From assembly GCA_965231875.1 (NCBI GenBank), contig CBDDOM010000002.1, positions 4,690,487-4,754,486 on the forward strand: a DNA stretch of 64,000 nucleotides, read 5' to 3'. This DNA is from Alphaproteobacteria bacterium. Lineage in GTDB: Bacteria > Pseudomonadota > Alphaproteobacteria > MPNO01. Below the pieces are notes generated by a model. That model saw only the letters and a program-made list of their open reading frames with translations, made no database searches and had not been told where the DNA came from. This document shows, piece by piece, positions 12,562 through 56,810 of this stretch; within the stretch, counting starts at the first letter, position 1; each line of letters begins with the position of its first letter. Position numbers and translations under genes: made by a program.

Positions 12562-13486
12562 AAGCCCGCCCCCGCGCGGTGCCGACGCGCTGGATTTCCC
12601 ATTCGAGCCGAATGCCGGTCGCGGCTTTCACCCTCTCGCGAACCTCCTCGCCGAGGTCTTCGAGATCGGCCGCGGTGGCACCGCCGGTGTTGATCAGGAA
12701 GTTGCAGTGGAGCGGCGAAACTTGCGCGCCGCCGCGGGTCAACCCTCGGCAGCCAGCCTCTTCGATCAATTCCCAGGCGCTTGCCTCCGGCGGGTTCTTG
12801 AACGTGCTGCCGCCGGTTCGTTCCCGGATGGGCTGGTCCTGGTTTCGGGCATCGGCGATCTCCGCCATTCGGGCGGCGACCTCCTCGTGCGTCCCGGGCA
12901 CGCCCCGCAGCGCCGTCTCGGTGAATATCCACCCCTCCGGCACCGCGCAGTTGCGGTATGAGAGACCGAGATCCGCCGCGCCCAGCCGATGCGTCCCCCC
13001 CGTCCTGTCGACTGCTTCGGCCGAGACGATGACGTCCCCGATCTCACGGCCGTACGCGCCGGCATTCATGCGCAGCGCGCCGCCGACGGTGCCCGGAATG
13101 CCGCTCAGAAACTCAAGACCCGAGACGCCGGCATCGCGCCCCTGGCGCGCCACCGTTACACCCATCGCAGCGGCGCCCGCCCGTATCTGCGTTCCGTTGC
13201 ACGCTATCGCCGCGAAAGGCCGGCCAAGACGGATCGCCACCCCCGGGATTCCGCCGTCCCGAACCAACAGGTTGGAGCCCACTCCGATCACGGTCACGGC
13301 GATGTCGAGGGGCAACGCTTCCAGAAATCGCGCCAGGTCCTCGCGGTCCGCGGGCTCGAACAGAAATTCCGCGGGCCCGCCGACGCGAAACCACAGCGAC
13401 CCGGCGAGCGGTACGTTCTGGCGCAGCGAACCGCGCACGGCCGGCAGGCGATCGATCGTCCGGGTCGGGGCGGCTGTCTCAATCAT
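12554..13486 (-). CDS. murB: UDP-N-acetylenolpyruvoylglucosamine reductase MurB
   Basis: FAD-binding PCMH domain ([16 protein letters not shown]). The true start MIETAAP at 13486 lies 2 nt after the murC stop. The track ORF (444 aa) is over-extended. Confidence 0.9.
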
Positions 13487-14936
13487 GGCCTGCCCCGGTG
13501 TTTCCCGCGGCGGCGACGGCGGGCTGCTCGTCCAGGATCGCCGACAGCCGGCCGGGCAGGGAATTGGCCCATGAGGTGATGTTGCCGGCGCCGAGACAGA
13601 CGACCATGTCGCCCGGAACGGCGAGCCCGGCGACCAGCGGGGCAAGCGCGTCCGGCGATTCGAGCGCTTGCACGTCGCGGTGCCCGCGTGCCTGCAGTCC
13701 GGCCGCCAGCGCGTCGCGGTCCACCCCCTGGATCGGCTCCTCGCCGGCCGGATAGACGTCGGCGACGACAACGGTGTCGGCGTCGTTGAAGCAGGTGCAG
13801 AACTCCTCGAACAGGTTCGCGAGCCGGGAATAGCGATGGGGTTGCACGACCGCGATGACATTGCGGCGACTGCTGGCCCGCGCGGCACCGAGCACGGCGG
13901 CGATCTCGACCGGATGGTGGCCGTAATCGTCGACGACCGTGATCCCGGCGACCTCCCCGGTCCTGGTGAAGCGTCGCTTGACCCCGCCGAAAGCCGCCAG
14001 CGCCCCTCGGATGGTGTCGTCCGCGATCTCCATCTCGATCGCTATCGCGATCGCCGCGAGCGCGTTCAGGACGTTGTAGGTCCCGACCATGGGCAGAACG
14101 AGACCGGAGAGGGTCCGGTGGCTTCCGCTCGTCCGGTCCGCGACTTCGACATCGAAGCGCGAACCGTCCGACAGGGTCTCGATCGCGGTGGCCCGGATAT
14201 CGGCCTGCGGACTGACGCCGTAGGTCACCAGGCGGCGGTCCGGCACGTCCCCGATCAGCCCCTGAACCTCCGGGTGGTCGATGCAGAGCGCGGCGAAACC
14301 GTAAAACGGGATGTTGGCGACGAAGGATTCGAACGCCCGGCGCAAATCGGCGAAGGAGCCGTAGAAGTCGAGATGTTCCGGGTCGATATTTGTCACGACC
14401 GCGACGGTGGCCGGAAGCTTGACGAAGGAACCGTCCGACTCGTCGGCCTCGACGACGATCCATTCTCCTTCGCCGAGGCGGGCGTTGGTGCCGTACGCGT
14501 TTATGATTCCGCCGTTGATGACGGTCGGGTCCAGATCGGCGGCTTCGAGTACGGCGGCGACGATAGAGGTTGTCGTCGTCTTTCCATGCGTCCCTCCGAC
14601 CGCGATCGACCATTTGAGACGCATGATCTCGGCCAGCATTTCAGCTCGGCGAACGACGGGAATCATCCGCGCGCGCGCAGCCGCGACTTCGGGATTGTCG
14701 GCGACGATCGCCGAGCTTGCGACGACGACCGATGCGTCGCCGAGATTTGCCGCGTCATGACCGACGCGGATCTCGATGCCGAGGGACCGCAGCCTGAGCA
14801 CATTCGCGCTATCGGCGATATCGCTCCCGCGAACCCGGTATCCGAGATTGTGCAACACCTCGGCGATGCCGCTCATACCGATTCCGCCAATGCCGACGAA
14901 ATGGATCGTTCCGACAGAGAGAGGGAGGGTTCTCAT
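13479..14936 (-). CDS. murC: UDP-N-acetylmuramate--L-alanine ligase MurC
   Basis: Mur ligase motifs ([25 protein letters not shown]). The start MRTLPL at 14936 overlaps the murG stop (ATGA). Confidence 0.9.
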
Positions 14937-16054
14937 GCCGCCCACCTCGGCGCGCCGCCATTGGCCCGGGCCAGCGCGTGAACCCGGTCGGCAAGGCGCG
15001 CGGCGGAATCGGGGATCGCCCAACGGAGCGCCGCCTGGGACGCGTCGGAGAGAAGGCCGGGAGTACGCAACAGGGTCTCGATCCGGCTGGCCAGGGTATC
15101 GGCGGCCAGATCCATCTCGGTCATCACCCATGCGGCGCCGTAACGCTCGATCTCACGGGCGTTCCGGTGCTGGTGACCCCCAGCCGCGCGCAGAAAAGGT
15201 ATGAGGATTGCCGGGCGCCCGATCGTGGCGAGCTCGGCGATTGTCGACGCACCCGCGCGCGAAATTACCAGCGACGCTTCGGCCATCCGCGCGGGCAGGT
15301 CACCGAAGAACGGTGCAACCTCGGCCGGGATATCGAGTTGACGATAGGCGGCGGTCACGCGCTCCACGTCCTCGGGCCGTGCCTGCTGGACGATGCGGAG
15401 GCGCTTCTTCAGCCCGGCCTCGACCGCAGCGATCGCCGGCGGCACCAGATCGGAGAGAATTCGCGCGCCCTGGCTGCCGCCGACCACCAGCAGTGAAATT
15501 GGCCCATCCGCGACAATGGGATCCGTATAGGGAGCCCCCGCAAGAGCCGCGACCGCGTCGCGAACGGGATTGCCGGTCCTGACCAGCTTGGAGAGATCCT
15601 CGACCCGTACGCCATGGACCTCGTCGAACGACGTGGCGATAGCGGATACCCTGGGCGCCAGCGCGGCGTTGGCCCGCCCCAGCATGGCGTTCTGCTCGTG
15701 GATCATGCTGGGTATGCCCGCCCGGAGCGCGGCAAACATGGTGGGCAGCGTGGGATAGCCGCCGAAGCCGACGACGGCTCTCGGCTGTATCCGCGCGAGC
15801 AGCCTGCGCGCCTGCAACCAGCCGTAGCAAAGCGTCATGACACCGCGCGCGGTGCCGCGAATACCGCCGCCCACCTGCCGGGCGGCGATGCAATGGACGA
15901 CGGCTCCGGCTCCGGCGTCGAAGCCGGCTCCACGGCCATCGGTGACGATCGCCACATGATGTCCGTGGCGGCCGAGTTCGCGGGCAAGCGCGGCGGCGGG
16001 GAACATGTGCCCTCCCGTGCCCCCGGCGGCCAGAACCACTGGACCTTCGATCAT
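14933..16054 (-). CDS. murG: UDP-GlcNAc:undecaprenyl-PP-MurNAc-pentapeptide GlcNAc transferase MurG
   Basis: GT28 motifs ([16 protein letters not shown]). The start MIEGPVV at 16054 overlaps the ftsW stop (ATGA). The track ORF (804 aa) is a fused artefact. Confidence 0.9.
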
Positions 16055-17172
16055 GGCCGTTCGTCCCCGATACGCCGCCTCGTGAGGGCGAGCAAAAGGC
16101 CCATCGCGAAAGCCACCGCGATCAACGACGACCCGCCATAGGAAATGAACGGCAGCGTCATCCCCTTGGCCGGCAGCAGCCTGAGCGAGGACCCCATGTG
16201 CACCACCGCCTGCAGGCCGAACTGGACCGCGAGCCCGGCGACGGCGACCATTACGAAGAGGTTGGTTTCGTGCAGTGCGTGGGCGAGGCCCCTGAGCACC
16301 ACGAACGCGAACAACCCCAGTATCACAAGGCAGGCGACGAGACCGAACTCCTCGCCTGCCACGGCGAAGATGAAGTCCGCGTGGCCGTCCGGCAGCACCC
16401 CCTTGATCGTGCCCTGACCGGGCCCACGGCCAAGCACGCCGCCGTTCATGAAGGCCTGGAGCGAGGTTTCGACCTGGAAGTTGTCGCCCAGGCTGGGATC
16501 GAGGAAACGGTTGACCCGGCTGGTCACGTGCGGAAGCAGCGAATAGGCCGCGACGGCCACGGCTCCGGCCCCCGCGGTGAGGGCGACGGCCCAGGGGAGC
16601 GACAGTCCGGCGATCAGCAGTTGCACGTACCAGGCGACCAGGACCACGGTCGCCATGCCGATATCCGGTTGCAGGAAGAGGAGCCCGAGGACGGACACCA
16701 CCAGAGCCGTCGCCATGAGGCCCATTCCCGCGCTGCCGGTCTCGCGATGCCGCGCGAGCAGCCAGGCGACCACGACGGCGCAGGAAGGCTTGACGAATTC
16801 GGAGGGCTGGATCGAGACCGGGCCGAGATCGATCCATCTCTGCGCGCCCTTGGTTTCGGTGCCGAGCAGGAGGGTTGCGGCCACCCCTGCCACGGAGAAG
16901 AGAAGGACCGCGGCGGAGAGCCAACGGGTAGGTGCCGGAGACAGCAGGGAAACGCCCAACAGGACCGCAACGGCAAGAGGCAGGTAGGAGATGTGGCGCC
17001 AGACCAGATGATACGGATCGAGTTGGAGGCGTTCGGCCACCGGCGGGCTGGCCGCAAGGACGAGAAGCACTCCGATCGCGAGCAGCATGGAGAGCGCCGT
17101 CACGGTCCATCGGTCGACAGTCCACCACCAGCGGCCCAGCGGGGATGTATCGTTGCGGGCGAACACCGTCAC
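16051..17172 (-). CDS. ftsW: peptidoglycan glycosyltransferase FtsW (SEDS family)
   Basis: Ten-transmembrane SEDS protein (PDGHADFIFAV, GGSSL). The GTG start at 17170-17172 overlaps the murD stop (GTGA). Confidence 0.9.
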   Translation of the reverse strand: MTVFARNDTSPLGRWWWTVDRWTVTALSMLLAIGVLLVLAASPPVAERLQLDPYHLVWRHISYLPLAVAVLLGVSLLSPAPTRWLSAAVLLFSVAGVAATLLLGTETKGAQRWIDLGPVSIQPSEFVKPSCAVVVAWLLARHRETGSAGMGLMATALVVSVLGLLFLQPDIGMATVVLVAWYVQLLIAGLSLPWAVALTAGAGAVAVAAYSLLPHVTSRVNRFLDPSLGDNFQVETSLQAFMNGGVLGRGPGQGTIKGVLPDGHADFIFAVAGEEFGLVACLVILGLFAFVVLRGLAHALHETNLFVMVAVAGLAVQFGLQAVVHMGSSLRLLPAKGMTLPFISYGGSSLIAVAFAMGLLLALTRRRIGDERP

Positions 17173-18542
17173 GGCCCGTCCTCCACCAGGCTCTCGGCCG
17201 CGGAGCGAAACGCGTCGCCGCGTGCAGCGAAGGACGGCCATTGATCGAATGAAGCGCAGGCGGGCGAGAGCAGGACGGTGGCCCCGGGGAGCCGCTCGCC
17301 TTGCGCATCGCGATGCGCGGCTTCGAGCGCGCAAGCGAGGTCGCCACAGCGCTCGACGGGCGCGCGCAAGCCGATCTCGTCCGCGAACGCGGCCTCGGCC
17401 TCGCCGATCAGATAAGCGCGCCGGACGCGATGCAGTTCCGGCAAGACAGCCTTGAGTCCGTCCGCCTTGGGCCGTCCGCCGGCAATCCAGTAGATCGCGC
17501 GATAACAGACCAGGGCGTTGCGGCTCGCTTCGCCGTTGGTGGCCTTGGAGTCGTTGACATAGCGGACCGCGTCGATGACGGCGACGGTCTCCTGGCGGTG
17601 CGGCAGGCCGGGATAGGTTGCGAGAGCCGCGGCGGCCTGCGCGCGGGAGAGCCCCAGGGATCGGGCGGCCGCGAAGGCGGCGGCGGCGTTCTGGTGGTTG
17701 TGAGCGCCGGGCAGGGTGTCGATGCCGGAGAGATCGGCGACCCGACACTTGTCCTCGAACAATGTGCCGCCGATGACGGAAACGCCGCCATCGATCGGGC
17801 GCCCCACGGCGATGGGGACCAGGCTCCACCCGGCGCGTTTCTCCAGGTCGGCGAGCACGGCGCGGCTGGCGGCATCGTCGGCCCCGACGATGGCAACCTG
17901 TCCCCCACCCGGCTTGTCGCGGAAAATCCGCCGTTTCGCGGCGACGTATCCGGCCAGATCGCCGTGCCGGTCGAGATGGTCGGGGCTGATGTTCAGGAGA
18001 ACGGCGGTGTCGAACCGCATCCTGTCGATCAGGTCGAGCTGGTAGGACGAGCACTCGACCACGTAGATACCCTCCGGTCCCAGGGCGGGAAGCGAAAGGG
18101 CGGGCGGTCCGAGATTGCCGCCGACGGCGACCGTCCGACCGGCCTCCGAAAGGAGGTGTCCCAGCAGCGCGGTGGTGGTCGATTTTCCGTTGGTCCCGGT
18201 GACGCCGACCATTCGCGCATCCGGCGCCGCCTCGCCCAGAAGCTCGATATCCCCGATGACCGGGCAGTCGGCCCGCCGGGCGCTGCGGACCACGGGGTGG
18301 GGCTCGGGATGGGTCAGCGGAACGCCGGGGCTCAACACGAGCGCGTCGAGACCGGGCCAGTCCCAGGCCGTGGGTTCGCACAACCTGATTCCGGCCGCGG
18401 CCGCGGCGCGGCGCGTTGCGGGGGCGTCGTCCCATCCGACGATCGCCGCGCCGCTGTTCCTGAGAGCGCCGGCGGTCGCCAGACCGGAACTGCCGAGGCC
18501 GAAGACGGCAAGGTTCTGGGTGCTGCGCGTGGGTAATTGCAT
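17169..18542 (-). CDS. murD: UDP-N-acetylmuramoylalanine--D-glutamate ligase MurD
   Basis: Mur ligase (GVTGTNGKSTTT). The start MQLPTRS at 18542 lies 4 nt after the mraY stop. Confidence 0.9.
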   Translation of the reverse strand: MQLPTRSTQNLAVFGLGSSGLATAGALRNSGAAIVGWDDAPATRRAAAAAGIRLCEPTAWDWPGLDALVLSPGVPLTHPEPHPVVRSARRADCPVIGDIELLGEAAPDARMVGVTGTNGKSTTTALLGHLLSEAGRTVAVGGNLGPPALSLPALGPEGIYVVECSSYQLDLIDRMRFDTAVLLNISPDHLDRHGDLAGYVAAKRRIFRDKPGGGQVAIVGADDAASRAVLADLEKRAGWSLVPIAVGRPIDGGVSVIGGTLFEDKCRVADLSGIDTLPGAHNHQNAAAAFAAARSLGLSRAQAAAALATYPGLPHRQETVAVIDAVRYVNDSKATNGEASRNALVCYRAIYWIAGGRPKADGLKAVLPELHRVRRAYLIGEAEAAFADEIGLRAPVERCGDLACALEAAHRDAQGERLPGATVLLSPACASFDQWPSFAARGDAFRSAAESLVEDGP

Positions 18543-18546
18543 CGGC

Positions 18547-19635
18547 CTAGCGCAGCTTGAGGGTGGACAGGCCGGCGAGCGCGAGCACCGCCGCGATGAT
18601 CCAGAACCGGATGACGACCGTCGATTCCGCCCATCCCTTCTGTTCGAAATGGTGGTGCAGCGGCGCCATCCGAAAGATCCGGCGCCCGGTGAGCCTGAAC
18701 GAGACCACCTGGACGATGACCGACACCGCTTCGAGAACGAACAGTCCGCCAATGATGACGAGCACGAGCTCGTGCTTGGTGATCAGGCTGACCGCGGCGA
18801 GCGCGCCTCCGACCGAGAGCGCGCCGGTGTCGCCCATGAACACCATCGCCGGCGGCGCGTTGAACCACAGGAAACCGAGCCCCGCGCCGACCAGCGCACC
18901 GCAAAACACCGCGAGCTCGCCCGCGCCCCGCACGAAATGGATTTGCAGGTAGTTGGAAAAAACCGCATTGCCCACGAGGTAGGCAATCATCGCGAAACAC
19001 CCGGCCGCGATCAGCGCCGGCATGATCGCGAGCCCGTCCAGGCCGTCGGTGAGATTGACCGCGTTGGACGTTCCGATCAGCACCAGCACCGCCCAGGGCA
19101 GGAAGAACCAACCGAGCGGAACGAGCACTTCCTTGAGGAACGGCACGGTGAGCCCCATCGCGAGCGGCCCCGCCGTGGCCTCGGTCATCCAGTACGCCGC
19201 GACCGTTCCGACCGCGATCTGGGCGAGCAGCTTCATGCGCGCCGACATCCCGCCGCTCGATCGTCGGCTCACCTTCAGATAGTCGTCGACGAAGCCGATC
19301 ACGCCGAAGCAAAGGGTCACGAACAACGCGATCCACACATACTGGTTGGCGAGGTCGGCCCAGAGCAGAGTCGCGATCAGAATGGTGGCCAGAATCAGCA
19401 CGCCACCCATGGTCGGCGTGCCCTTCTTGGTCAGAAGATGCGACGGCGGTCCGTCCTCGCGGATGGGCTGGCCGTCGCCCTGTTGCAGTTTGAGCCAGCG
19501 GATGAGCGAAGGGCCGAGGATCAGCGACAGGGCCAGGGCGGTGACCGCGGCGCCTCCTGTCCTGAGCGTGATGTACCGGATCAGGTTCAGAACGCCGCCA
19601 TCGTCGGCGAAGGGGAGGAGCGCATTGAATAACAT
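18547..19635 (-). CDS. mraY: phospho-N-acetylmuramoyl-pentapeptide transferase MraY
   Basis: 363 aa after trimming. Integral membrane protein with MraY motifs ([18 protein letters not shown]). The track ORF (556 aa) is over-extended. Confidence 0.92.
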
Positions 19636-31821: not shown

Positions 31822-32205
<384 letters not shown>

Positions 32206-39162: not shown

Positions 39163-39191
39163 GGGAAATGTCGGGCGTATCCCCCTCCCCC

Positions 39192-39287
39192 GTCATGCTC
39201 GGCGAAGGCCGAGCATCCACGAGTTTTTCGCTGTGTAAGGGCTACGAAAAAACAAAACGCGGATGGTCGGCCTCCGCCGACCATGAC
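39192..39287. repeat. intergenic hairpin repeat, family 1 (copy A, imperfect arms)
   Basis: GTCATGCTCGGCGAAGGCCGAGCATCCACGAG-TTTTT...AAAAAACAAAA-CGCGGATGGTCGGCCTCCGCCGACCATGAC. Same family as the perfect 31-bp inverted repeat at 43486..43578. Confidence 0.6.
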
Positions 39288-39375
39288 GGGCTACAAGAGA
39301 GGTGCCCAATTCGGATTGACCTGCGGGATCGGGGCGCTTCCGCGCCGCGCGGGCCACGGCTATTCTGATCCGCGT

Positions 39376-40204: not shown

Positions 40205-41608
40205 ATGACCGCGACCCTGACCGCCGACGGCCTCGCCGACCGGCTTCGCGGATTTCTCGGAGAACGGGTCTCGACCTCGGCGGTCGTGCGCGAGGGGCAC
40301 GGGCGCGACGAATCGCACCACCCGCCCTTCCCGCCCGACATCGTCGTGTTCCCCGAATCGGTCGACGAGACGGTCGCCGTCGTCGGGCTCTGCCGCGAGC
40401 ACGACACGCCGATGATCCCCTTCGGCGTCGGAACCTCGCTCGAAGGCCATGTCGCCGCGCTTGAGGGCGGGGTGTCGATCGACATGTCGCGGATGAACCG
40501 GGTGCTCGAAGTCAACGCCGCCGACCTCGACGTCCGGGTCGAGCCCGGCGTGACCCGCAAGCAGCTGAACGCGCATCTTCGCGACACCGGGCTGTTCTTC
40601 CCGATCGACCCGGGCGCGGACGCGACCCTCGGCGGCATGACCGCGACCCGGGCCTCGGGAACCAACGCGGTGCGCTACGGCACGATGCGCGACAACGTGC
40701 TGGGGCTCACCGTAGTGCTCGCCGACGGCCGGGTCATCCGGACCGGCACCCGGGCACGGAAATCCTCGGCGGGGTACGACCTCACGCGCCTCTTCGTCGG
40801 ATCGGAGGGGACGCTCGGCGTGATCGTCGAGGTGACGCTCCGGCTCTCCGGCATTCCGGAGGCGATCTCGGCCGCGGTCTGCGCCTTCCCGAGCGTCGAC
40901 GACGCCGTCGAGACTTCCATCGCGATCATCCAGTCGGGCGTGCCCGTCGCGCGGATTGAGCTCGCCGACGAGGTGCAGATCACCGCGATCAACCGCTGGT
41001 CGAGGACCGAGCTCCCCGAGCGCCCGGTGCTGTTCTTCGAGTTTCACGGAAGCGAGGCCTCGGTCGCCGAGCAGGCGGAGACCGCGCAGGCGATCGCCGC
41101 CGACAACGGCGGCACCGGGTTCGAATGGTCGACCCGGCAGGAGGACCGCAACGTCCTATGGCAGGCGCGTCATGACGCGCATTACGCCAATATGGGGCTC
41201 CGTCCCGGCCGCCGCGCCTGGCCCACCGATGTCTGCGTGCCGATCTCCAGGCTCGCGGAATGCATCGCCGAAACGCAGCGGGACATCGCCGCCACCGACC
41301 TGCTCGCCCCCATCGTGGGCCATGTCGGCGACGGGAATTTCCACATCGATTTCGTGATCGACCCCGACGACGAGGCCGAGCTCGCCGCCGCCACCGGGGT
41401 GAACGAACGCCTGATCGGGCGCGCGCTCGCGATGGGCGGCACCTGCACCGGCGAGCACGGCGTCGGTTACGGCAAGAAGAAATACCTCGCCGCCGAGCAC
41501 GGCGAGGGGGTCTCGGTGATGCGTGCGATCAAGCAGGCGCTCGATCCCGCCAACCTGATGAATCCGGGAAAGATCGTCGATCCGCCTCCGGCGGCCGCGG
41601 CGGAGTAA
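40205..41608 (+). CDS. FAD-linked oxidase, GlcD/D-lactate dehydrogenase (cytochrome) family
   Basis: 467 aa. FAD_binding_4 (PCMH) N-terminal domain (GVGTSLEGH, GSEGTLGV) and a C-terminal FAD-oxidase_C domain (TGEHGVG...K). Confidence 0.85.
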   Translation: MTATLTADGLADRLRGFLGERVSTSAVVREGHGRDESHHPPFPPDIVVFPESVDETVAVVGLCREHDTPMIPFGVGTSLEGHVAALEGGVSIDMSRMNRVLEVNAADLDVRVEPGVTRKQLNAHLRDTGLFFPIDPGADATLGGMTATRASGTNAVRYGTMRDNVLGLTVVLADGRVIRTGTRARKSSAGYDLTRLFVGSEGTLGVIVEVTLRLSGIPEAISAAVCAFPSVDDAVETSIAIIQSGVPVARIELADEVQITAINRWSRTELPERPVLFFEFHGSEASVAEQAETAQAIAADNGGTGFEWSTRQEDRNVLWQARHDAHYANMGLRPGRRAWPTDVCVPISRLAECIAETQRDIAATDLLAPIVGHVGDGNFHIDFVIDPDDEAELAAATGVNERLIGRALAMGGTCTGEHGVGYGKKKYLAAEHGEGVSVMRAIKQALDPANLMNPGKIVDPPPAAAAE

Positions 41609-41627
41609 GGCGCGCGATACGGCATCC

Positions 41628-41731
41628 GCCCTCCCCCGGCCCCTCCCGCAAGCGGGAGGGGAGAAGGCGGGGAGCGCTCGGCGGGCGAGCCTCCCTCTCC
41701 CCCGCGGGGAGAGGGTCGGGGTGAGGGGGCT
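41628..41731. repeat. GC-rich palindromic mosaic repeat, family 2 (copy 1)
   Basis: Contains nested hairpins CCTCCCGCAAGCGGGAGG and CTCTCCCCCGCGGGGAGAG. An inverted copy at about 88% identity lies at 46341..46445. It sits between the convergent genes FAD oxidase and DUF4169. Confidence 0.6.
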
Positions 41732-41791
41732 GAAACCGTCCCCTACGAACCGCGCGCCTCGGCGTCCCCCGAGCGCCTGCCCATACCCTTG

Positions 41792-41827
41792 GTCAAGCTA
41801 TCTATATAAGCCCCTGTCGAAGGGCGG
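41792..41827. repeat. short repeat module, family 4 (GTCAAGCTATCTATATAAGCCCCTGTCGAAGGGCGG)
   Basis: Near-identical copies at 43634..43669 (same orientation) and 43386..43414 (reverse complement). Confidence 0.55.
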
Positions 41828-41836
41828 AACCGGCCC

Positions 41837-42046
41837 TCAGCTCTGCTTGGGTCCGCCCTCGCGGTCGGTCTTGTCTTCGAGCAGCCTGGCGTCGAGGCGC
41901 AGCGCGTCCCGCTCCTTCTGTCGACGGGCGGCTTCCTTGTCCTGCTTGCCGCGCCCATGTCTGGCGCGGTTTTCCGCCGCTTCGTTCTTGCGGGCGAGCC
42001 GTGTCCGCTTCTTCCGGTACTGGTTGAGCTGGATCACGTCGCCCAT
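41837..42046 (-). CDS. small basic protein, DUF4169-like
   Basis: 69 aa from the internal ATG, MGDVIQLNQYRKKRTRLARKNEAAENRARHGRGKQ.... Lys/Arg-rich, and its N-terminus resembles the MxDVINL..RK.RE DUF4169 pattern. Family assignment made from memory. Confidence 0.4.
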   Translation of the reverse strand: MGDVIQLNQYRKKRTRLARKNEAAENRARHGRGKQDKEAARRQKERDALRLDARLLEDKTDREGGPKQS

Positions 42047-42154
42047 CGGATACCCCTCCACGCCGGGTGAGCCGGGGTTGCAGCGGCCTCACGAACCCTA
42101 GCACCCGCCCCGTGGCCGCGCCAACCGCGTAGGGAGAGTCCGGCCCGAAAACCG

Positions 42155-43237
42155 CTACTCCGCGGCCGACCTCAGCTCGGCGGCCGACATGCGGTGGAGC
42201 GCGCGGCGGGCGAGCGCCACCGCCTCGTCGTGGCGGCGGTAGTGCAGCCCGCGTCCGGGATCGCGCGAGATCGCCCGCTGCTGGGCCTCGATCGTCGCCT
42301 TGTCCTCCAGGAACGCCTCGGAGACGTCCTTGTAGAACCGCTCTCCCTCCGGCGAGTCGACGGCGCGGTTGCGGTTGGCGACCGACCAGAAATAGTGGCA
42401 GGTCGTCTCCGTCTCGGGCGTCGCGTGGTGGAACAGACGGAGCGAGAGCCCGCCCTCGCGGTTTCGGTCCTGCCTGGCGCCGCGTCCGACCGCATGCGCC
42501 CCGCCCCATTGCAGCACCGAGGCCGGCGCGACGTACTCGAACTCCGACCAGCGGTCGACCGGCCCCTCGAAGCCGCCGATGGCGACGAAGGACGGCGGCG
42601 GCGGCGAAGCCATCATCCAGCGGACGAACCTGGCGCCGTTCGCGGTAGCGGTCGTGTCCATCTCGGCGTCGACATGGGATTGCGGGAACCCGCCGATGGT
42701 CGAGCCGTGGACGTAGCCGAGATGAGTGAGGTCCATCAGGTTGTCCATCACGAACATGAAGTTCGCCTCGAAGCGGTAGCGGCCGAACCGGAACGGCCAC
42801 TCGGCGCCCGCGTCGTGGAACGGGAAGTCGACGATCCGGGACTCGTCCGCCAGCGCGGGATCGCCCATCCAGGCCCAGACGAAGTTCTGCCGTTCGACGG
42901 CGGGGAAGGACCGCACGCCGTAGAGGCCGCGATCCTCTTCTTCGCCCGGATTGCCGGTGCACGCGCCGTCCGCGCCGAAGACCATCCCGTGATAGCCGCA
43001 CTGCAGCCCGGCTTCCACCACGGTACCGAGGCTGAGCGGCGCGGCCCGGTGGCAGCACCTGTCCTCCAGGATGCCGACCCGCCCGGCGGCATCGCGGAAC
43101 AGCACCGCCTCCTCGCCCAGCAGCGTCCGCGCCAGCGGCTCGTCGCCGACCTCATGCCCCCAGGCCGCGATGTACCACGCATTGCGGACCATCGGCTCGA
43201 TCGGATTGTCGGACATGGGCGGCCCCGTCATCGTCAT
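42155..43237 (-). CDS. Rieske [2Fe-2S] non-heme-iron oxygenase alpha subunit (VanA/phthalate-dioxygenase-like class)
   Basis: 360 aa. Rieske motif CCHRAAPLS..(17)..CGYHG, and a mononuclear Fe site in the catalytic domain (HLGYVHG...). Its size matches single-subunit oxygenases that use a separate reductase. Confidence 0.85.
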   Translation of the reverse strand: MTMTGPPMSDNPIEPMVRNAWYIAAWGHEVGDEPLARTLLGEEAVLFRDAAGRVGILEDRCCHRAAPLSLGTVVEAGLQCGYHGMVFGADGACTGNPGEEEDRGLYGVRSFPAVERQNFVWAWMGDPALADESRIVDFPFHDAGAEWPFRFGRYRFEANFMFVMDNLMDLTHLGYVHGSTIGGFPQSHVDAEMDTTATANGARFVRWMMASPPPPSFVAIGGFEGPVDRWSEFEYVAPASVLQWGGAHAVGRGARQDRNREGGLSLRLFHHATPETETTCHYFWSVANRNRAVDSPEGERFYKDVSEAFLEDKATIEAQQRAISRDPGRGLHYRRHDEAVALARRALHRMSAAELRSAAE

Positions 43238-43290
43238 TCGCGTTCCCTCAAACCTATCAGCGCGAAGAGGTCCGATCCATCGCGACCGGT

Positions 43291-43393
43291 CCCTCGATAC
43301 GCCGCTTCGCGGCTACTCGGGATGAGGGAGAATTCTCGCTACTCCCACGGCAATCCCTCACCCTGAGTAGCGGCGAAGCCGCGTATCGAAGGG
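43291..43393. repeat. palindromic repeat, family 3 (copy 1)
   Basis: CCCTCGATACGCCGCTTCGCGGCTACTCGGGATGAGGGAG with a roughly 25-nt loop and an inverted arm. Second copy at 56719..56810. Confidence 0.6.
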
Positions 43394-43414
43394 GGCTTAT
43401 ATAGATAGTTTGAC
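43386..43414. repeat. family 4 module, reverse orientation
   Basis: CGAAGGGGGCTTATATAGATAGTTTGAC is the reverse complement of the family 4 core. Confidence 0.5.
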
Positions 43415-43485
43415 GAGCGGGAGGTCGACAGACGTTCCGGGAGGCGCCGGGGCATACCCCTTTCGCGCCAGACCGTTCCTCTGTC

Positions 43486-43578
43486 GTCATGGTCGGCGCA
43501 GGCCGACCATCCACGAGTTTTTGCGGCGCCGGAAACAAAAAAACAAATCGTGGATGGTCGGCCTGCGCCGACCATGAC
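43486..43578. repeat. hairpin repeat, family 1 (copy B, perfect 31-bp inverted repeat)
   Basis: GTCATGGTCGGCGCAGGCCGACCATCCACGA-[31-nt T/A-rich loop]-TCGTGGATGGTCGGCCTGCGCCGACCATGAC, with perfect arms. It lies in the P450/Rieske intergenic region. Confidence 0.7.
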
Positions 43579-43633
43579 GGAGGAGGCGGGACAAGTCCCG
43601 CGCCCGCCGGCACCGGGCGCCGGGCCGGTCACC

Positions 43634-43669
43634 GTCAAGCTATCTTTATAAGCCCCTATCGAAGGGCGG
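43634..43669. repeat. family 4 module (copy 2)
   Basis: GTCAAGCTATCTTTATAAGCCCCTATCGAAGGGCGG. Confidence 0.55.
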
Positions 43670-43881
43670 CGGGCCCCCCGCTCCCCCGCAACCGCCCCGC
43701 CTGTCACTCCGAAACACGTCCGGGGTGACATCGGGGTGGGCGGTCTCGTGGTCGATTCGACGAAAATTTGTCCTGTTACGATATTTTTAATTGACCCGGG
43801 ACACGTTTTGAGGTATATTTACCATAGTGGAGAAGTGGGGGCGCCGGAGATTTCGGCGTCCCTTTCCGTTGCCAAGCCTGA

Positions 43882-45207
43882 CTACGCTGGCGGCGTCTTC
43901 GCCGTGTCCCACTCGACCCTGAGCTGCTGCACGCCGCGGAAGGTGAGCGTCGGGATGTATTTCCAGTCCTGGCCCTCGACGAGTTGCATGTGGGGAAGGC
44001 GGCGGGTCAGCTCTTCCAGGATTATGCGCATCTCGAGCCGGGCGAGCGGCGCGCCCATGCAGAAATGCGCGCCGTTGCCGAAGGCGAGGTGGCGCTTGGC
44101 GCCGGAGCGGGCAATGTCGAACGTCCCGCCGTCTGGAAATGTTGCGTCGTCGCGGTTGCCGGAGCCGAGCAACAGCAGGATCTTCGCCCCGGCGGGGACC
44201 GGCACGCCGCCGATCTCCGCGTCCCGCGTCGCGATCCGGCGCCAGGCGAAGATCGAGGCGTCGTAGCGGAGGATTTCCTCCACCGCGCCCGGGATCAGGC
44301 CGGGGTCGTCGCACAGAAGCTGCCACTGCGCGCGGTCCGACAGCAGCGCCTTCAGCCCGTTGGCCGAGGCCTGGGTGGTGGTCTCGTGGCCGGCGAACTG
44401 CATCAGGAACATGACGTTGTAGAGGTAGTTCACCGTGAAGCGCGACGGGTCCTCGCGGTGCAGCCGCACCATGTCGCCGAGATAGTTGTCGCCGGGGTTC
44501 TCCAGCGCGGCGTCGACGAGTTCTTTCGTGAACGCCCAGTGCTCGCCCATGTCGCTCATCATCGCGACCTGCTCGGCCTCGCCGGGCTTGCCCCAGTTGA
44601 CCACCGCCCGGGCCGAGCCGAGGCGTTTGACGAACACCGCGTCGTCGTCCCGCGCGCCGAGGAAGATGAAAATCGCGAGCGCCGGGACCTCGTAGAGCAT
44701 CCGCGACACCAGCTCGGCCTCGCCGTCGCCGGCGAAGCGGTCGATGTAGCGGGTGACGATGGCCCGGATGCGCGGCTCGATCTCGTTGACTCGCCGGGGG
44801 GTGAAGGCATCGCCGAAGATCTTGCGGTGCTTGAGATGCGTCTCCGGGTCCTCGTCGACCAGCGAGGGCTCGATGGCAATGTCGAGGCTGTCGCGCACCT
44901 TCGCCGCGGCCGGGCAGAGCGGCGTCACCGGATGGCGGGCGAGCGCGGCGGAAAACGTCTTCGGGTCGCGGAAGACGGCGACGATGTCGTCATGGCGCGC
45001 GACCGCCCAGTAGCCGGTCTCGGGGCTGTAGAACACCGGCTCTTCCCCGCGCGCGCGCTCGAAAAACGGGTAGGGGTCGGCGAGATAGGCCTCGGAGAAC
45101 GGCCGGAAGCCGGCGCCGAGCGCGCTCGCCGGGCACGCTCGCGGAGCGGCGGCGTCGGTGGCTTCCGGCTCCGACTGGAACATGCCGAGCTGCCCGATCG
45201 TAGACAT
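43882..45207 (-). CDS. cytochrome P450 monooxygenase
   Basis: Heme-binding loop FGNGAHFCMGAPLARLE, I-helix AGHETT, and a K-helix ExxR. About 441 aa from the ATG at 45207 (alternative ATG at 45282). The track ORF begins further upstream. Confidence 0.85.
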   Translation of the reverse strand: MSTIGQLGMFQSEPEATDAAAPRACPASALGAGFRPFSEAYLADPYPFFERARGEEPVFYSPETGYWAVARHDDIVAVFRDPKTFSAALARHPVTPLCPAAAKVRDSLDIAIEPSLVDEDPETHLKHRKIFGDAFTPRRVNEIEPRIRAIVTRYIDRFAGDGEAELVSRMLYEVPALAIFIFLGARDDDAVFVKRLGSARAVVNWGKPGEAEQVAMMSDMGEHWAFTKELVDAALENPGDNYLGDMVRLHREDPSRFTVNYLYNVMFLMQFAGHETTTQASANGLKALLSDRAQWQLLCDDPGLIPGAVEEILRYDASIFAWRRIATRDAEIGGVPVPAGAKILLLLGSGNRDDATFPDGGTFDIARSGAKRHLAFGNGAHFCMGAPLARLEMRIILEELTRRLPHMQLVEGQDWKYIPTLTFRGVQQLRVEWDTAKTPPA

Positions 45208-45365
45208 TTCCCTGTCCCCTTCCGCGCCGCCGCCATCTTGGCGGATCGCCGCCGCGGCCGCCACCGGGGGCTCGATAGACATTTGCACCGCCGGATCGAC
45301 CCGCGTCGGCACGATCCGGCATCGACGCGCCGATAAATGCCGAACCCAACCGAAGGAGAAACGAC

Positions 45366-46304
45366 ATGCAGACAGCGAATGCCTACAGGAATGACGACAC
45401 GCCGGATGCGGCCGGCGCCGGCTGCATCGACCCGAAGGCGCTCAAGGACGCCCGCGAGCGCCGGGGCCTGACCCAGTCGCAGCTCGCCGATGAAGTCGGA
45501 TGCGGCAAGGACACCGTGAGCCGGTGGGAACGGGGCCATTCCCACCGGCTGCAACCGCGTCACCGCGAGTCGCTGTGCGCCGCGCTCGGGGTCCGCTGGC
45601 ATGCTCTGGCGGGGTCCGGTTCCGGCGGGCCGAACGACATTTCCCGCGACACCTGGGTCGGATCGGCGGCCGGAGAAGACATCCGGACGGCATTCCGTCT
45701 TGCGGCCGAACGCTACGACATCGGCGTGCACGACGTGATGAAGACCGCGCCGCTGCTTTTCGTCATCGCCGCCGAGCGGAGCCTGATCGAGCGCAGGCGG
45801 CAGCTCGAAGCGGCCCGCGCGGAGGTCGACGGGACCGCGCGGGCGCTGGCGGACAACGCGCCCTGTCTCGGCCGGGCGGTCGAGGAAGCGGTCCGAAAGG
45901 AGGAAAAATCGATCGCCGAAAACGACATTTTCGGACGCCTCGTCCGGTCCGAAGGGGATGAGGAAGACGACGAAGGGCCGTTCGCGCGCTTCCTCCGCGG
46001 CCTCGCGAGCGACCTTCCGGAGAGCGCGACGCGCGGCTTCCTTCCGGCCCCGGAAAACGCTGTCGGGTCCCCCGCGACCGCGGAGGACGCAAGCCGCGAC
46101 ACCGCGGAAGCCTGGGACGGGAATAGCGTTCTGCGGCGGCTTTTTCCGCATTTCCGCGCGGGCCGGATCGCCATTGGGGAGTATCTCAGGGCGAAACGCG
46201 AGCGCGACGAAGCCGGCTTCCGGCAATGGGTGACCGACGCGCTCGCCCGGGCCGAAGAGCAAGCGCGCAACGCCTCGCGCGCCGGCAAGGAATCGGGGGA
46301 GTAG
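45366..46304 (+). CDS. XRE-family helix-turn-helix transcriptional regulator with a long uncharacterised C-terminal domain
   Basis: 312 aa. HTH_3 region (LTQSQLADEVGCGKDTVSRWERG). Strong SD AAGGAG. Divergent from the P450, with about 160 bp between them. Confidence 0.7.
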   Translation: MQTANAYRNDDTPDAAGAGCIDPKALKDARERRGLTQSQLADEVGCGKDTVSRWERGHSHRLQPRHRESLCAALGVRWHALAGSGSGGPNDISRDTWVGSAAGEDIRTAFRLAAERYDIGVHDVMKTAPLLFVIAAERSLIERRRQLEAARAEVDGTARALADNAPCLGRAVEEAVRKEEKSIAENDIFGRLVRSEGDEEDDEGPFARFLRGLASDLPESATRGFLPAPENAVGSPATAEDASRDTAEAWDGNSVLRRLFPHFRAGRIAIGEYLRAKRERDEAGFRQWVTDALARAEEQARNASRAGKESGE

Positions 46305-46340
46305 GGAATCCATACCGGATCCCGGGCCGGATCGCTTCGG

Positions 46341-46445
46341 CCCCCCTCACCCCGACCCTCTCCCCGCCGGGGAGAGGGTGCTCGCTCGCCGGGCGCTCCC
46401 TGCCGTCTCCCCTCCCGCTTGCGGGAGGGGTTGGGGGAGGGCGGG
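46341..46445. repeat. family 2 mosaic repeat (copy 2, inverted relative to 41628..41731)
   Basis: Reverse complement of copy 1 at about 88% identity. It sits between the convergent genes XRE and MBL hydrolase. Confidence 0.6.
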
Positions 46446-46451
46446 CGTCCC

Positions 46452-47354
46452 TCAGGGCAGGCTGTAGCGGGACTCGGCGGTCGGGGGGCCGTCGCACGCT
46501 ATGCGGCCGGTCTCGACCATGTGCTCCAGATGGGCGAGCGTCGACCTTCCGGCGGCCCAGTGCATGCGCTCCGGCAGATGCGCGTACATGCGCCCGACCA
46601 TCGCGGGCAGCGTCGCGAGCCCGTCGTCGAGGCAGCGCAGGATCTGGCTCTCGCGCATCCGCCGGTGGCCGAGATAGGCGCGGACGAACGGCGCGGGCCG
46701 GTCGATCGGCGGGCCGTGGCCGGGGAGGTAGAGCGCGTCCTTGCGGGCCATGCAGATGTCAAGCGAGCGCAGGTAATCGCCCATATTGCCGTCGGGCGGC
46801 GAAACGATGGTGGTGTTCCACCCCATCACATGGTCGCCTGAGAACAATATCCCGCCCTCGGCCAGCGCGAAGCAGTGGTGGTTCGACATGTGGCCCGGCG
46901 TGAACACCGGCGTCAGCGTCCAGCCGGGCCCCGCGATGGCGTCTCCGTCGGCGAGGTGGATGTCGGGCTCGAAGTCGTGGTCGGTGGCCTCCAGCGGGGG
47001 CTCGCCGTCGCCCGGCGGGGCCGGCAGGGCGCCGACGATGGGGGCCCCGACCGCGCGGGCGAAGGCGCGCGCCGCCGGGGAATGGTCGATATGGGTATGG
47101 GTGACGATGACATGGCTGACCGTCTCGCCCGCCACGGCGCGCGTCAGCGCCTCGACATGGTCCGCGTCGTCGGGGCCGGGATCGATCACCGCGACCTCGC
47201 CCTCGCCCTCGCCCACCACGTAGGAGTTGGTGCCGTGGAAGGTGAAGGGGCTCGGGTTGTTGCAGACGACGCGCCGGACGCCGGGCGCCACGGTTTCGGC
47301 CCGCCCGTATTCGAACGCCATCTGTTTGCGGAACGGAATGTCGGCTTGGGCCAT
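46452..47354 (-). CDS. MBL-fold metallo-hydrolase
   Basis: HxHxDH motif THTHIDH plus downstream His/Asp ligands. About 300 aa from the ATG at 47354. The track ORF (390 aa) is over-extended. Confidence 0.8.
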   Translation of the reverse strand: MAQADIPFRKQMAFEYGRAETVAPGVRRVVCNNPSPFTFHGTNSYVVGEGEGEVAVIDPGPDDADHVEALTRAVAGETVSHVIVTHTHIDHSPAARAFARAVGAPIVGALPAPPGDGEPPLEATDHDFEPDIHLADGDAIAGPGWTLTPVFTPGHMSNHHCFALAEGGILFSGDHVMGWNTTIVSPPDGNMGDYLRSLDICMARKDALYLPGHGPPIDRPAPFVRAYLGHRRMRESQILRCLDDGLATLPAMVGRMYAHLPERMHWAAGRSTLAHLEHMVETGRIACDGPPTAESRYSLP

Positions 47355-47374
47355 CGGGGGCTTCCGGGGAATGT

Positions 47375-48481
47375 CTACTGGATGACGATGCTGGGCGCGG
47401 GCTTCACCGCCCCGCCGGAAACCTTCGCCCAGACCGCGTCGGCGATCGCCCGGTAGGCGTCGGCGTGCATGCCCTGGGGGTCGGTGGCGACGATCGGCCG
47501 GCCGGCGTCGGCGCCCTCGCGGATCGCCATGTCGAGCGGCAGCTCGCCGAGGAAGTCGACCTCCATCGCTTCGGCCGCGCGCCGCGCGCCGCCATGGGTG
47601 AAGACGTCCGACCGACCGCCGCAATGGGGGCAGATGAAATAGCTCATGTTCTCGATCACGCCGAGCACCGGTATGTCGACCTTGCGGAACATGTTGAGCC
47701 CCTTGCGCGCGTCGATCAGGGCCAGGTCCTGCGGCGTCGACACGATCACCGCGCCGGCCAGCGGCACGCGCTGCGCCATGGTGAGCTGCACGTCGCCGGT
47801 GCCGGGCGGCATGTCGACGACGAGAATGTCGAGCTCGCCCCAGGCGACGTCGCGCATCAGCTGCTCCAACGCGCCCATCACCATCGGGCCGCGCCAGATG
47901 GTCGGCGAATCGGCCGGGATCAGGAAGCCGATCGACATCGCCTTCAGCCCCCAGGCGAGCATGGGGTCGAGCACCTTGCCGTCGGGCGAGGTCGGGCGGT
48001 CGGTAATGCCGAGCATCAGCGGCAGGGACGGCCCGTAGATGTCGGCATCGAGAATGCCGACCGAATGCCCGGCGGCGGACAGCGAAAGCGCGAGATTGAC
48101 CGCGGTGGTCGACTTGCCCACCCCGCCCTTGCCGGAGGCGACGGCGACGATCCGCTTCACGCTCGGCATGAGCGGCTGCTGGGGCGCCTGCCGCTCGGCG
48201 GGACGCGGGGCCTCGGGCGGCGGCGCCTGTTCGCTGTGCGCGGTGAGCACGGCGGTCACCGACAGGACGCCCGGCACGGCGGCGACGGCGCGTTCGGCCT
48301 CCTTCCTGAGCGGCTCCAGGGCGGGCCCGCGCTCGGGCGCCACCTCGATCGAGAAGCCGACATTGCCCTGCTTGAGAACCAGGCCCGAGATCATCCCGAG
48401 CGACACGATATCCTCGCCCCGGCCGGGGTCGCGGACCGATTTCAGCGCCTCGAGGATGGCGGTCTCGTTCAACTGCGGCAT
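47375..48481 (-). CDS. apbC: iron-sulfur cluster carrier ATPase ApbC/Mrp
   Basis: 368 aa. N-terminal DUF59-like region, deviant Walker A SGKGGVGKST, and a CPHC motif. Confidence 0.9.
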   Translation of the reverse strand: MPQLNETAILEALKSVRDPGRGEDIVSLGMISGLVLKQGNVGFSIEVAPERGPALEPLRKEAERAVAAVPGVLSVTAVLTAHSEQAPPPEAPRPAERQAPQQPLMPSVKRIVAVASGKGGVGKSTTAVNLALSLSAAGHSVGILDADIYGPSLPLMLGITDRPTSPDGKVLDPMLAWGLKAMSIGFLIPADSPTIWRGPMVMGALEQLMRDVAWGELDILVVDMPPGTGDVQLTMAQRVPLAGAVIVSTPQDLALIDARKGLNMFRKVDIPVLGVIENMSYFICPHCGGRSDVFTHGGARRAAEAMEVDFLGELPLDMAIREGADAGRPIVATDPQGMHADAYRAIADAVWAKVSGGAVKPAPSIVIQ

Positions 48482-56718: not shown

Positions 56719-56810
56719 CCCTTCGATACGCGGCTGCGCCGCTACTCAGGGTGAGGGAGCCGGACGTTAGTCCCTCATCCCGAGTAGGCGCGCCAGCGCC
56801 GTATCGAGGG
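56719..56810. repeat. palindromic repeat, family 3 (copy 2)
   Basis: CCCTTCGATACGCGGCTGCGCCGCTACTCAGGGTGAGGGAG...CTCCCTCATCCCGAGTAGGCGCGCCAGCGCCGTATCGAGGG. It ends 5 nt before the parE stop, at the convergent ilvN/parE junction. Confidence 0.6.

Follow-up and report, generated by a model that had tools for sequence, protein, structure and literature searches.

Identity of the repeats

The 64-kb stretch of alphaproteobacterial DNA analysed here (the window) contains a 4.6-kb block of oxygenase and regulatory genes bracketed by two ~105-bp repeats in opposite orientation, which raises the question of whether these repeats (i) delimit a mobilisable unit, (ii) stop transcription, (iii) allow the block to invert, or (iv) belong to a dispersed repeat family. 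We are confident that they are separate copies of the dispersed, intergenic BoxC/PIT/TM (intrastrand-triplex motif) class and do not delimit a mobile unit. The genes of the block and its flanks are:

40205-41608, + strand, FAD-linked oxidase (D-lactate dehydrogenase-like) gene; left flank, convergent with the DUF4169 gene, orthologues found
41837-42061, - strand, DUF4169 gene (Pfam)
42155-43237, - strand, Rieske/VanA_C oxygenase gene (Pfam)
43882-45312, - strand, cytochrome P450 gene (Pfam)
45366-46304, + strand, XRE-family HTH regulator gene; divergent from the P450 gene, convergent with the MBL-fold gene
46452-47624, - strand, metallo-beta-lactamase-fold (MBL-fold) gene; right flank, start codon uncertain, orthologues ~298 aa

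Copy A (41626-41731) and copy B (46340-46446) are mutually inverted. An earlier note on this DNA had described two inverted copies of about 105 bp, and both a repeat search and BLAST confirmed that the pair is real. The note's figure of ~88% identity captured the similarity but was slightly low: global identity is ~90%, and a BLAST search of the window with copy A aligned copy B at 91.3% over 104 nt (E 2.8e-32). The repeat search resolved the match into inverted arms of 65 nt (41626-41690/46380-46444, 91%) and 37 nt (41693-41729/46342-46378, 97%). No third copy was found in the 64-kb window by BLAST with copy A, whose sole other match was 46444-46342. The gene labels in the note (DUF4169, Rieske oxygenase, P450, XRE) were correct by Pfam, and its report that no transposase is present held for the main ORFs of the block, which yielded only DUF4169, Rieske/VanA_C, p450 and HTH domains. 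Given the gene strands at both sites, each copy lies between convergently transcribed genes, as had also been stated; by gene calls and Pfam, both copies are intergenic, each located between the two stop codons.

Each ~105-nt copy combines two modules, TM1 and TM2, in an inverted doublet; a module consists of a 10-bp G/C hairpin and, after it, a G-rich tract in mirror symmetry to the purine arm. The parts are:

41626-41661, - strand, copy A module TM1: hairpin CCCCTCCCGC-AA-GCGGGAGGGG at 41640-41661 plus outer C-rich tail CCGCCCTCCCCCGG
41662-41692, no strand assigned, copy A spacer, ~31 nt, variable among family members (family alignments)
41693-41729, + strand, copy A module TM2: CCCTCTCCC-CCGCG-GGGAGAGGG-TCG-GGGTGAGGG(GG), an exact match to the TMECO/BoxC/PIT pattern
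41730-41827, + strand, copy A extension (CTGAAACCGTCCCCTACGAACCGCGCGCC...) plus the attached 36-nt 'T' module (GTCAAGCTATCTATATAAGCCCCTGTCGAAGGGCGG)
46344-46378, - strand, copy B module TM2, matching the TMECO pattern exactly
46379-46447, + strand, copy B spacer and module TM1: hairpin CCCCTCCCGC-TT-GCGGGAGGGG at 46409-46430, then G-rich tail TTGGGGGAGGGCGGGCG

Membership in the class is assigned by pattern. The TMECO pattern, CCCTCNCCC-N3-6-GGGNGAGGG-N3-GGGNGAGGG, describes elements known as BoxC or PIT (Holder et al. 2015, PMC4666352), and the window contains two exact matches to it, at 41693-41727 (+) and 46344-46378 (-), where 0.00 were expected (100 shuffles). Further, the TM2 stems and the second (TCG) loop are identical to those of E. 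coli TMECO nos. 12 and 20 (Table 1, PMC4666352). Counting G*G-C, A*A-T and T*A-T as purine-motif triads, we read from the sequence nine canonical triads for GGGAGAGGG/TCG/GGGTGAGGG, with the third strand antiparallel to the purine arm, and eight contiguous ones for TM1 (GCGGGAGGGG/TT/GGGGGAGGGCG). The mirror symmetry of TM1, GCGGGAGGGG / GGGGGAGGGCG, can be read in the same way; on the minus strand of copy A, this module runs from pyrimidine arm to purine arm to mirror G-rich third strand, a class II triplex-type layout. A G-quadruplex reading of the G tracts, which the sequence allows, was set aside, as published NMR favoured the triplex for the E. coli motif; published DMS footprinting did not detect the triplex in vivo. 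Rfam returned no match at the gathering threshold, and relaxed E-values gave only spurious matches to eukaryotic miRNA hairpins.

The resemblance to BoxC/PIT/TMECO elements (Bachellier et al.; Hoyne et al. 2000; Holder et al. 2015, PMC4666352) extends beyond the TM2 pattern, stems and TCG loop. The E. coli motifs are always intergenic, commonly occur as inverted pairs, have no link to transposons, phages or plasmids, and occupy loci that are unusually variable between strains (PMC4666352). Likewise, the elements described here are intergenic, pair in inverted orientation with a second, different triplex-type module, lack an associated transposase, and show presence/absence and rearrangement polymorphism between close strains. 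There are also differences: (i) the stems are 10 bp here and 9 bp in E. coli; (ii) the partner module (CCCCTCCCGC/GCGGGAGGGG, tail GGGGGAGGGCG) is not of TMECO type A or B sequence; (iii) the G/C-rich tails point outward, whereas in E. coli pairs they face each other (Table 1); (iv) copy A has further repeat modules fused to it; and (v) the host is a Defluviicoccus-like alphaproteobacterium. The fusion at copy A, in which doublet, extension and T module form a ~210-bp mosaic, recurs at other loci, and the same order is found in L130, L133 and L135. We recommend that the repeats be labelled BoxC/PIT/TM-type intergenic repeats.

The locus in relatives

Loci in relatives were found via homologues of the window's FAD-oxidase and MBL-fold proteins, exact-sequence look-ups of which gave no match. 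The earlier note had suggested that copies A and B might be the ends of a composite, MITE-flanked unit mobilised in trans with an oxygenase cassette as its cargo, and had stated that relatives keeping the genes without the flanking repeats would refute this option. Such relatives exist: in the syntenic, Defluviicoccus-like loci L001 and L002-L005, DUF4169, P450 and the flanking genes are all retained, as is the Rieske gene in most of them, and both repeats are missing. L001 has the same genes, including XRE, without copy B; the 133 bp that fill positions 46319-46451 of the window (no strand assigned) correspond there to ~8 bp, while site A, the position of copy A, holds a DUF433 gene instead (possibly a toxin-antitoxin remnant). 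In L002-L005, which keep DUF4169, Rieske, P450 and MBL, the gap between FAD-oxidase and DUF4169 is 10 bp, and in L002 and L005 the entire 41608-41834 segment is missing.

Since DUF4169, P450 and both flanks persist in relatives that lack the repeats, the composite-transposon reading is refuted, and we give it almost no credence. It drew on the inverted orientation and ~91% identity of the copies and on a relative, L142, in which the pair likewise brackets a block, one with different cargo; however, the cargo differences are internal insertions and deletions, and in every relative that has the block it lies between the same flanking genes, no other genomic context being observed. Copy A has its nearest relative elsewhere: it shares 93% identity with a copy in L133, an unrelated metagenome locus, against 90% with copy B, and thirteen other doublets are solitary within the DNA fetched around them. 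While the arrangement resembles a composite transposon in having two similar inverted repeats around a gene cassette, the repeats are 105-bp non-coding hairpin elements rather than insertion sequences, and the cassette is syntenic in relatives without them. The genes between the copies are ordinary chromosomal genes, held at the same place by relatives, and it would be wrong to annotate the oxygenase/P450 block as a mobilisable cassette.

Nor did target-site duplications appear where the note had proposed to look for them, outside 41628 and 46445: the outer flanks, ending in ...GGCGCGCGATACGGCAT on the left and beginning with TCCCTCAGGG on the right, share no direct repeat. A AGGCGCGCG...CGCGCGCCT pair around copy A was considered as a duplication and rejected, being partly internal to the conserved extension of the family. 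At copy B, a flanking 4-5 bp direct repeat, TCCC(G), may represent a duplication, but it is weak and at chance level, and a duplication-free alignment fits the empty site of L141 exactly.

That locus, 94-96% identical to the window, is empty at site B, where it reads TAGGGAATCGCTGCCGGTTCCCG followed directly by CTCAGGG; as in L001, the segment 46319-46451 is absent (site B junctions were taken from BLAST coordinates and the raw sequence). In L008, 96-97% identical to the window, the element at site A is in the opposite orientation. By identity matrices the loci fall into three clades, two of which are internally polymorphic, and for these two sites the present, absent and flipped states occur within clades of 90-97% nucleotide identity. 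Variation at one copy is thus independent of the other, and in no case does the block move as a whole. We first took the repeats for recent gains, but L142 carries copies at both sites, and in the orientations seen in the window, so that loss is conceivable as well as gain. Occurrence of the pair in two lineages might be a sign of a linked role; the Rieske gene is absent from L142.

The flipped element at site A of L008 also bears on a further possibility, namely that the inverted copies serve as substrates for homologous recombination and make the block an invertible segment. The copies share exact identical runs of 25 and 26 nt, but identity of this length is at the lower limit for RecA-mediated exchange, and the orientation of the block relative to its flanks is the same in the window, L001, L002-L005 and L142, whether repeats are present or not. 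We consider inversion of the block very improbable.

Copies elsewhere and their gene context

The 22-nt core is found in at least 120 stretches of DNA from many phyla among the matches listed, and exact copies occur outside the Proteobacteria covered by the 2015 survey, in genomes assigned to other phyla. A plasmid search gave partial matches only, mostly on non-mobilisable chromid-like replicons, and no link to mobile elements.

The gene context of the copies is pertinent to a rival explanation, that the doublets stop transcription from both directions at the convergent gene pairs or form hairpins that stabilise 3' ends there, by means of GC hairpins lacking a U-tract or of C-rich tracts that load Rho. 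At the window's two sites, transcripts arriving between the convergent genes from either side would encounter a C-rich tract ahead of a 10-bp GC hairpin. In other genomes, TM copies in convergent, same-strand and divergent gaps number 26/44/5, against 12.7/44.6/17.7 expected (p ~1e-5; the crude GC3-based gene caller behind these counts misses some genes), that is, twice the expected frequency in convergent gaps and few in divergent ones. However, for 59% of the classifiable copies the neighbouring genes are on the same strand, without significant strand bias (27:17), and the convergent genes of close relatives are only 7-21 bp apart by gene calls. No T-run follows the hairpins, and a promoter/terminator scan found no site inside either repeat, none of the eight terminator-like sites predicted between 39000 and 48000 falling within them. 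Fold energies, calculated with tools that consider Watson-Crick pairs only, are just modestly below those of shuffled sequences (z -1.5 to -2.4). Finally, PIT/BoxC elements had neither promoter nor terminator activity in E. coli, according to earlier work as cited in PMC4666352. We therefore consider a role in transcript ends rather unlikely. The earlier note's alternative of REP-like bidirectional terminators was apt in that the repeats belong to a dispersed, intergenic, hairpin-forming family, but its terminator component did not hold up.

That the two copies occupy the short gaps between convergent 3' ends is most likely explained by tolerance of such elements there and selection against them in promoter regions.

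Origin and spread

Copies may arise and be lost through processes to which hairpins or non-B DNA are prone, such as replication slippage or template switching; alternatively, a trans-acting enzyme might act on single-stranded hairpins. The main effect of the copies would then be to make the DNA around them structurally unstable, rather than to serve a dedicated role in regulation. A more specific version of the enzymatic route, which we regard as doubtful, is that BoxC/TM doublets are active non-autonomous, REPIN-like elements whose putative trans-acting enzyme handles single-stranded hairpins and recognises a core conserved across phyla. If the doublets are mobile, the filled, empty and flipped Defluviicoccus alleles (site B in the window versus L141; site A in the window versus L008) would make the insertion chemistry readable. 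The locus provides clear natural alleles (present, absent and flipped) among closely related wastewater Defluviicoccus strains; together with the wider range of phyla, these could help in learning how such long-known repeats spread.

REP/BIME elements and RAYT-mobilised REPINs are likewise short intergenic palindromes that are enriched at the 3' ends of genes, are often arranged as spaced inverted doublets and form mosaics with other modules. Unlike them, the elements described here have a mirror-repeat third strand, which is not a REP feature, and a core common to many phyla, whereas REPs are species-specific. With MITEs (for example Correia/NEMIS, RUP, ERIC) they share a non-coding sequence of ~100-200 bp, insertion polymorphism between strains and an imperfect terminal inverted similarity, but no reliable target-site duplication is present here. 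This terminal similarity, in which the outer tails of an element are complementary at ~14/17 nt, is due to the two triplex tails themselves; as the tails of the doublet face outwards, they are able to pair with each other. We know of no parent insertion sequence for these elements. By analogy only, the arrangement of doublet, extension and T module at site A recalls the RIME/Sm-repeat mosaics of Sinorhizobium, alphaproteobacterial intergenic mosaics of several palindromic modules (mentioned in PMC3738161).

Inverted repeat copies and their neighbouring genes

A repeat of ~105 nt was found by repeat search in two mutually inverted copies in the window, and a BLAST search of copy A against the window returned copy B as its sole other match (91.3% over 104 nt, E 2.8e-32). 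Copy A occupies site A, between the FAD-linked oxidase and DUF4169 genes, and copy B occupies site B, between the XRE and metallo-beta-lactamase-fold (MBL) genes; both are flanked by convergent genes. Repeat search, BLAST and gene calls thus bear out the arrangement described in the earlier note, whose gene labels for the intervening ~4.6-kb block, and its statement that the block lacks a transposase, also agree with Pfam (no transposase domain among the block genes).

41626-41690 and 46380-46444: inverted arms, pair 1 (65 nt, 91%; repeat search)
41693-41729 and 46342-46378: inverted arms, pair 2 (37 nt, 97%; repeat search)
40205-41608, + strand: FAD-linked oxidase (Pfam)
41837-42061, - strand: DUF4169 (Pfam)
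42155-43237, - strand: Rieske/VanA_C (Pfam)
43882-45312, - strand: P450 (Pfam)
45366-46304, + strand: XRE HTH (Pfam)
46452-47624, - strand: MBL protein (Pfam)
47375-48481, - strand: Mrp/NUBPL-like ATPase (Pfam)

The element is a doublet of a long-known repeat class

Read in the direction of copy A, the doublet comprises a C-rich tail (CCGCCCTCCCCCGG), a hairpin (CCCCTCCCGC-AA-GCGGGAGGGG), a spacer of ~31 nt, a second hairpin (CCCTCTCCCC-CGC-GGGGAGAGGG) and TC-GGGGTGAGGGGG. Each half consists of a 10-bp G/C hairpin and, after its purine arm on one or other strand, a G-rich tract mirroring that arm. As the halves are mutually inverted with their tails outward, predicted folds pair the tails as an outer stem enclosing both hairpins; the advantage in fold energy over shuffles is small (z -1.5 to -2.4), in line with the base composition. 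No Rfam family matching the repeat was found.

The E. coli BoxC repeat, later found again as the PIT element and given the name TMECO (Holder et al., NAR 2015; PMC4666352), follows the pattern CCCTCNCCC-N3-6-GGGNGAGGG-N3-GGGNGAGGG. Both window copies match this pattern exactly (0.00 expected by chance), and they share the stems and TCG loop of E. coli TMECO nos. 12 and 20. They differ from E. coli TMECO in their 10-bp stems, in a partner module of other sequence but the same mirror-repeat logic, and in tails that point outward, rather than inward as the Table 1 coordinates indicate for E. coli pairs (PMC4666352). According to the same study, the E. coli motifs are intergenic without exception, frequently form inverted pairs of two differing types, have no link to transposons, phages or plasmids, and occupy loci that vary far more between strains than control regions; their single strands form triplexes in vitro, and none were detected in vivo (PMC4666352). 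The pair is real but ordinary, adding to this class a member whose doublet layout differs slightly and whose host is new.

Alignment of family members showed that copy A is continued by a conserved extension, to which a 36-nt 'T' module is joined (41730-41827), an order of parts also present in three metagenome loci (L130, L133 and L135). Because this extent agrees with the segment missing in full from the relatives L002 and L005 (41608-41834), the site A element is a mosaic of ~210 bp; copy B is a bare doublet.

The AT-rich 'T' module (GTCAAGCTATCTATATAAGCCCCTGTCGAAGGGCGG) lies in direct orientation at 41792-41827 and 43634-43669 and inverted at 43379-43414. It adjoins the doublet extension at site A and in the three metagenome loci, and a third repeat family at 43379, indicating that intergenic repeats of the window form mosaics.

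Distribution of the doublets

A doublet pattern search yielded 12 further copies in metagenome contigs and one more in a genome-scan match (L027). Copy A is 93% identical to the doublet of L133, an unrelated locus, and 90% identical to copy B, so the window copies are not each other's closest relatives. Apart from those of the syntenic L142, the doublets were solitary within the DNA fetched around each. Among plasmids, BLAST recovered comparable one-piece doublets from Sphingomonas, Mitsuaria and Klebsiella, most of them on large replicons that are not mobilisable, with no annotated feature at those positions.

The 22-nt core CCCTCACCCCGAYCCTCTCCCC, scanned in one genome per species, occurred in at least 120 stretches of DNA. 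The matches listed span Alpha-, Beta- and Gammaproteobacteria, Myxococcota, Planctomycetota, Verrucomicrobiota, Acidobacteriota, Dormibacterota and Desulfobacterota, and in all of them a variable loop and then GGGGAGAGGG follow 3' of the core. The survey of 2015 counted 262 proteobacterial genomes with TMECO (PMC4666352). Flanks of the shared core are genus-specific (e.g. CGCGGAGA..GC in Bradyrhizobium; CCACGC..GCATCC in Azospirillum).

Repeats and genes vary independently among relatives

FAD oxidase homologues, which mark the source organism as a Defluviicoccus-like alphaproteobacterium, led us to the syntenic loci; two more were reached via XRE protein homologues. Identity matrices defined three clades.

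Clade 1 (window, L008, L141): 95-97% nucleotide identity
L008: site A, element in reverse orientation, with the contig ending within it; site B not in view
L141: site B empty, reading TAGGGAATCGCTGCCGGTTCCCG followed directly by CTCAGGG; site A not in view
Clade 2 (L001, L142)
L001: site A, a DUF433 gene in the repeat's place; site B absent (~8 bp vs 133 bp in the window)
L142: a doublet at each of sites A and B, oriented as in the window
Clade 3 (L002-L005): site A absent (10 bp between FAD-oxidase and DUF4169 genes); site B absent

Clade 3 retains DUF4169, Rieske, P450 and MBL but is missing XRE, L001 has the same gene set as the window, XRE included, and L142 carries other genes between its copies, with no intact Rieske gene. 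In the more distant L006 and L007, genes 3' of the FAD oxidase are unrelated. Across these loci, then, the state of each copy (present, absent or flipped) does not follow that of the genes; DUF4169, P450 and the genes on either side hold their chromosomal position whether repeats are there or not, and only L142 lacks the Rieske gene. The earlier note had offered an oxygenase cassette, mobile in trans, as one of two readings, and had itself named retention of the genes without repeats as refuting mobilisation; the 4.6 kb between the copies do not form a mobile cassette. Nor did target-site duplications, expected outside the pair, appear convincingly: the outer flanks share nothing, and a possible TCCC(G) direct repeat at site B competes with a duplication-free alignment that fits the L141 empty site exactly. 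Polymorphism occurs within two clades, so each copy may have been gained or lost. This behaviour among Defluviicoccus strains fits the published description of TMECO.

In L008 (5257-5341 vs window 41609-41760) the triplex module is reversed directly after an identical AGGCGCGCG; the flanking gene is ~96-97% identical to that of the window and the element aligns less well than that gene. This may be an in-place flip or a replacement. Site A of L001 (11427-11740) holds the DUF433 gene and then a short piece of an ORF, which may be what is left of a toxin-antitoxin system; the space that follows the FAD-oxidase gene is thus a spot of repeated insertion. Between Rieske and P450, L002-L005 carry four genes (aldo-keto reductase, DUF6064, DAO/GCV_T and GCV_T; ~12780-18750) that the window and L001 lack, their gap being ~640 bp of mosaic repeats (43238-43881 in the window). 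The XRE gene (45366-46304) is 80-82% identical in nucleotides and 64-68% in protein to its clade-2 orthologues (L001, L142), compared with 88-91% identity for its neighbours.

Genomic context and function

Using a crude GC3-based gene caller, we classified 75 copies in GC-rich scan loci among the matches listed, with expectations derived from intergenic length. Convergent gaps were over-represented (26 observed, 12.7 expected), same-strand gaps were as expected (44 and 44.6; strand bias 27:17, not significant) and divergent gaps were depleted (5 and 17.7), a departure with p about 1e-5. The copies thus lie preferentially at gene 3' ends and seldom in promoter regions, and are far from confined to convergent pairs. 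As for the earlier note's alternative of bidirectional terminators, a dedicated role of that kind is unsupported and unlikely: no T-run follows either hairpin, a terminator scan placed none of its eight sites within the repeats, Holder et al. cite earlier E. coli work in which neither promoter nor terminator activity was seen (PMC4666352), and the convergent genes of close relatives are called just 7-21 bp apart. The repeat would best be read as a tolerated, structure-prone dispersed element at an unstable spot.

Other elements of the locus

In each copy of a second palindromic family (~105 nt; window 39184-39289 and 43478-43586; L001 7944-8065), an A-rich centre separates an inverted pair of GTCATGGTCGGC..GCCGACCATCCACGAGTTTTT arms. 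The third family (containing CCCTCACCCTGAGTAGCGGCGAAGCCGCGTATCGAAGGG) occurs at window 43287-43393 and 56719-56758, 98% complementary over 40 nt, and at L001 11744-11836 and 13280-13378. RNase P RNA, bacterial class A, lies at 31823-32200 (- strand; 290 bits). At 43791-43871 (+ strand) a sigma-70-like promoter (TTGACC-17-TATATT) precedes a short GC hairpin; a homologous 80-bp unit in L002-L005 (L005 20175-20253; L002 19907-19985) ends in a canonical terminator and lies on the opposite side of the P450 gene; this may be a very short transcription unit, or a small RNA, whose position has shifted.
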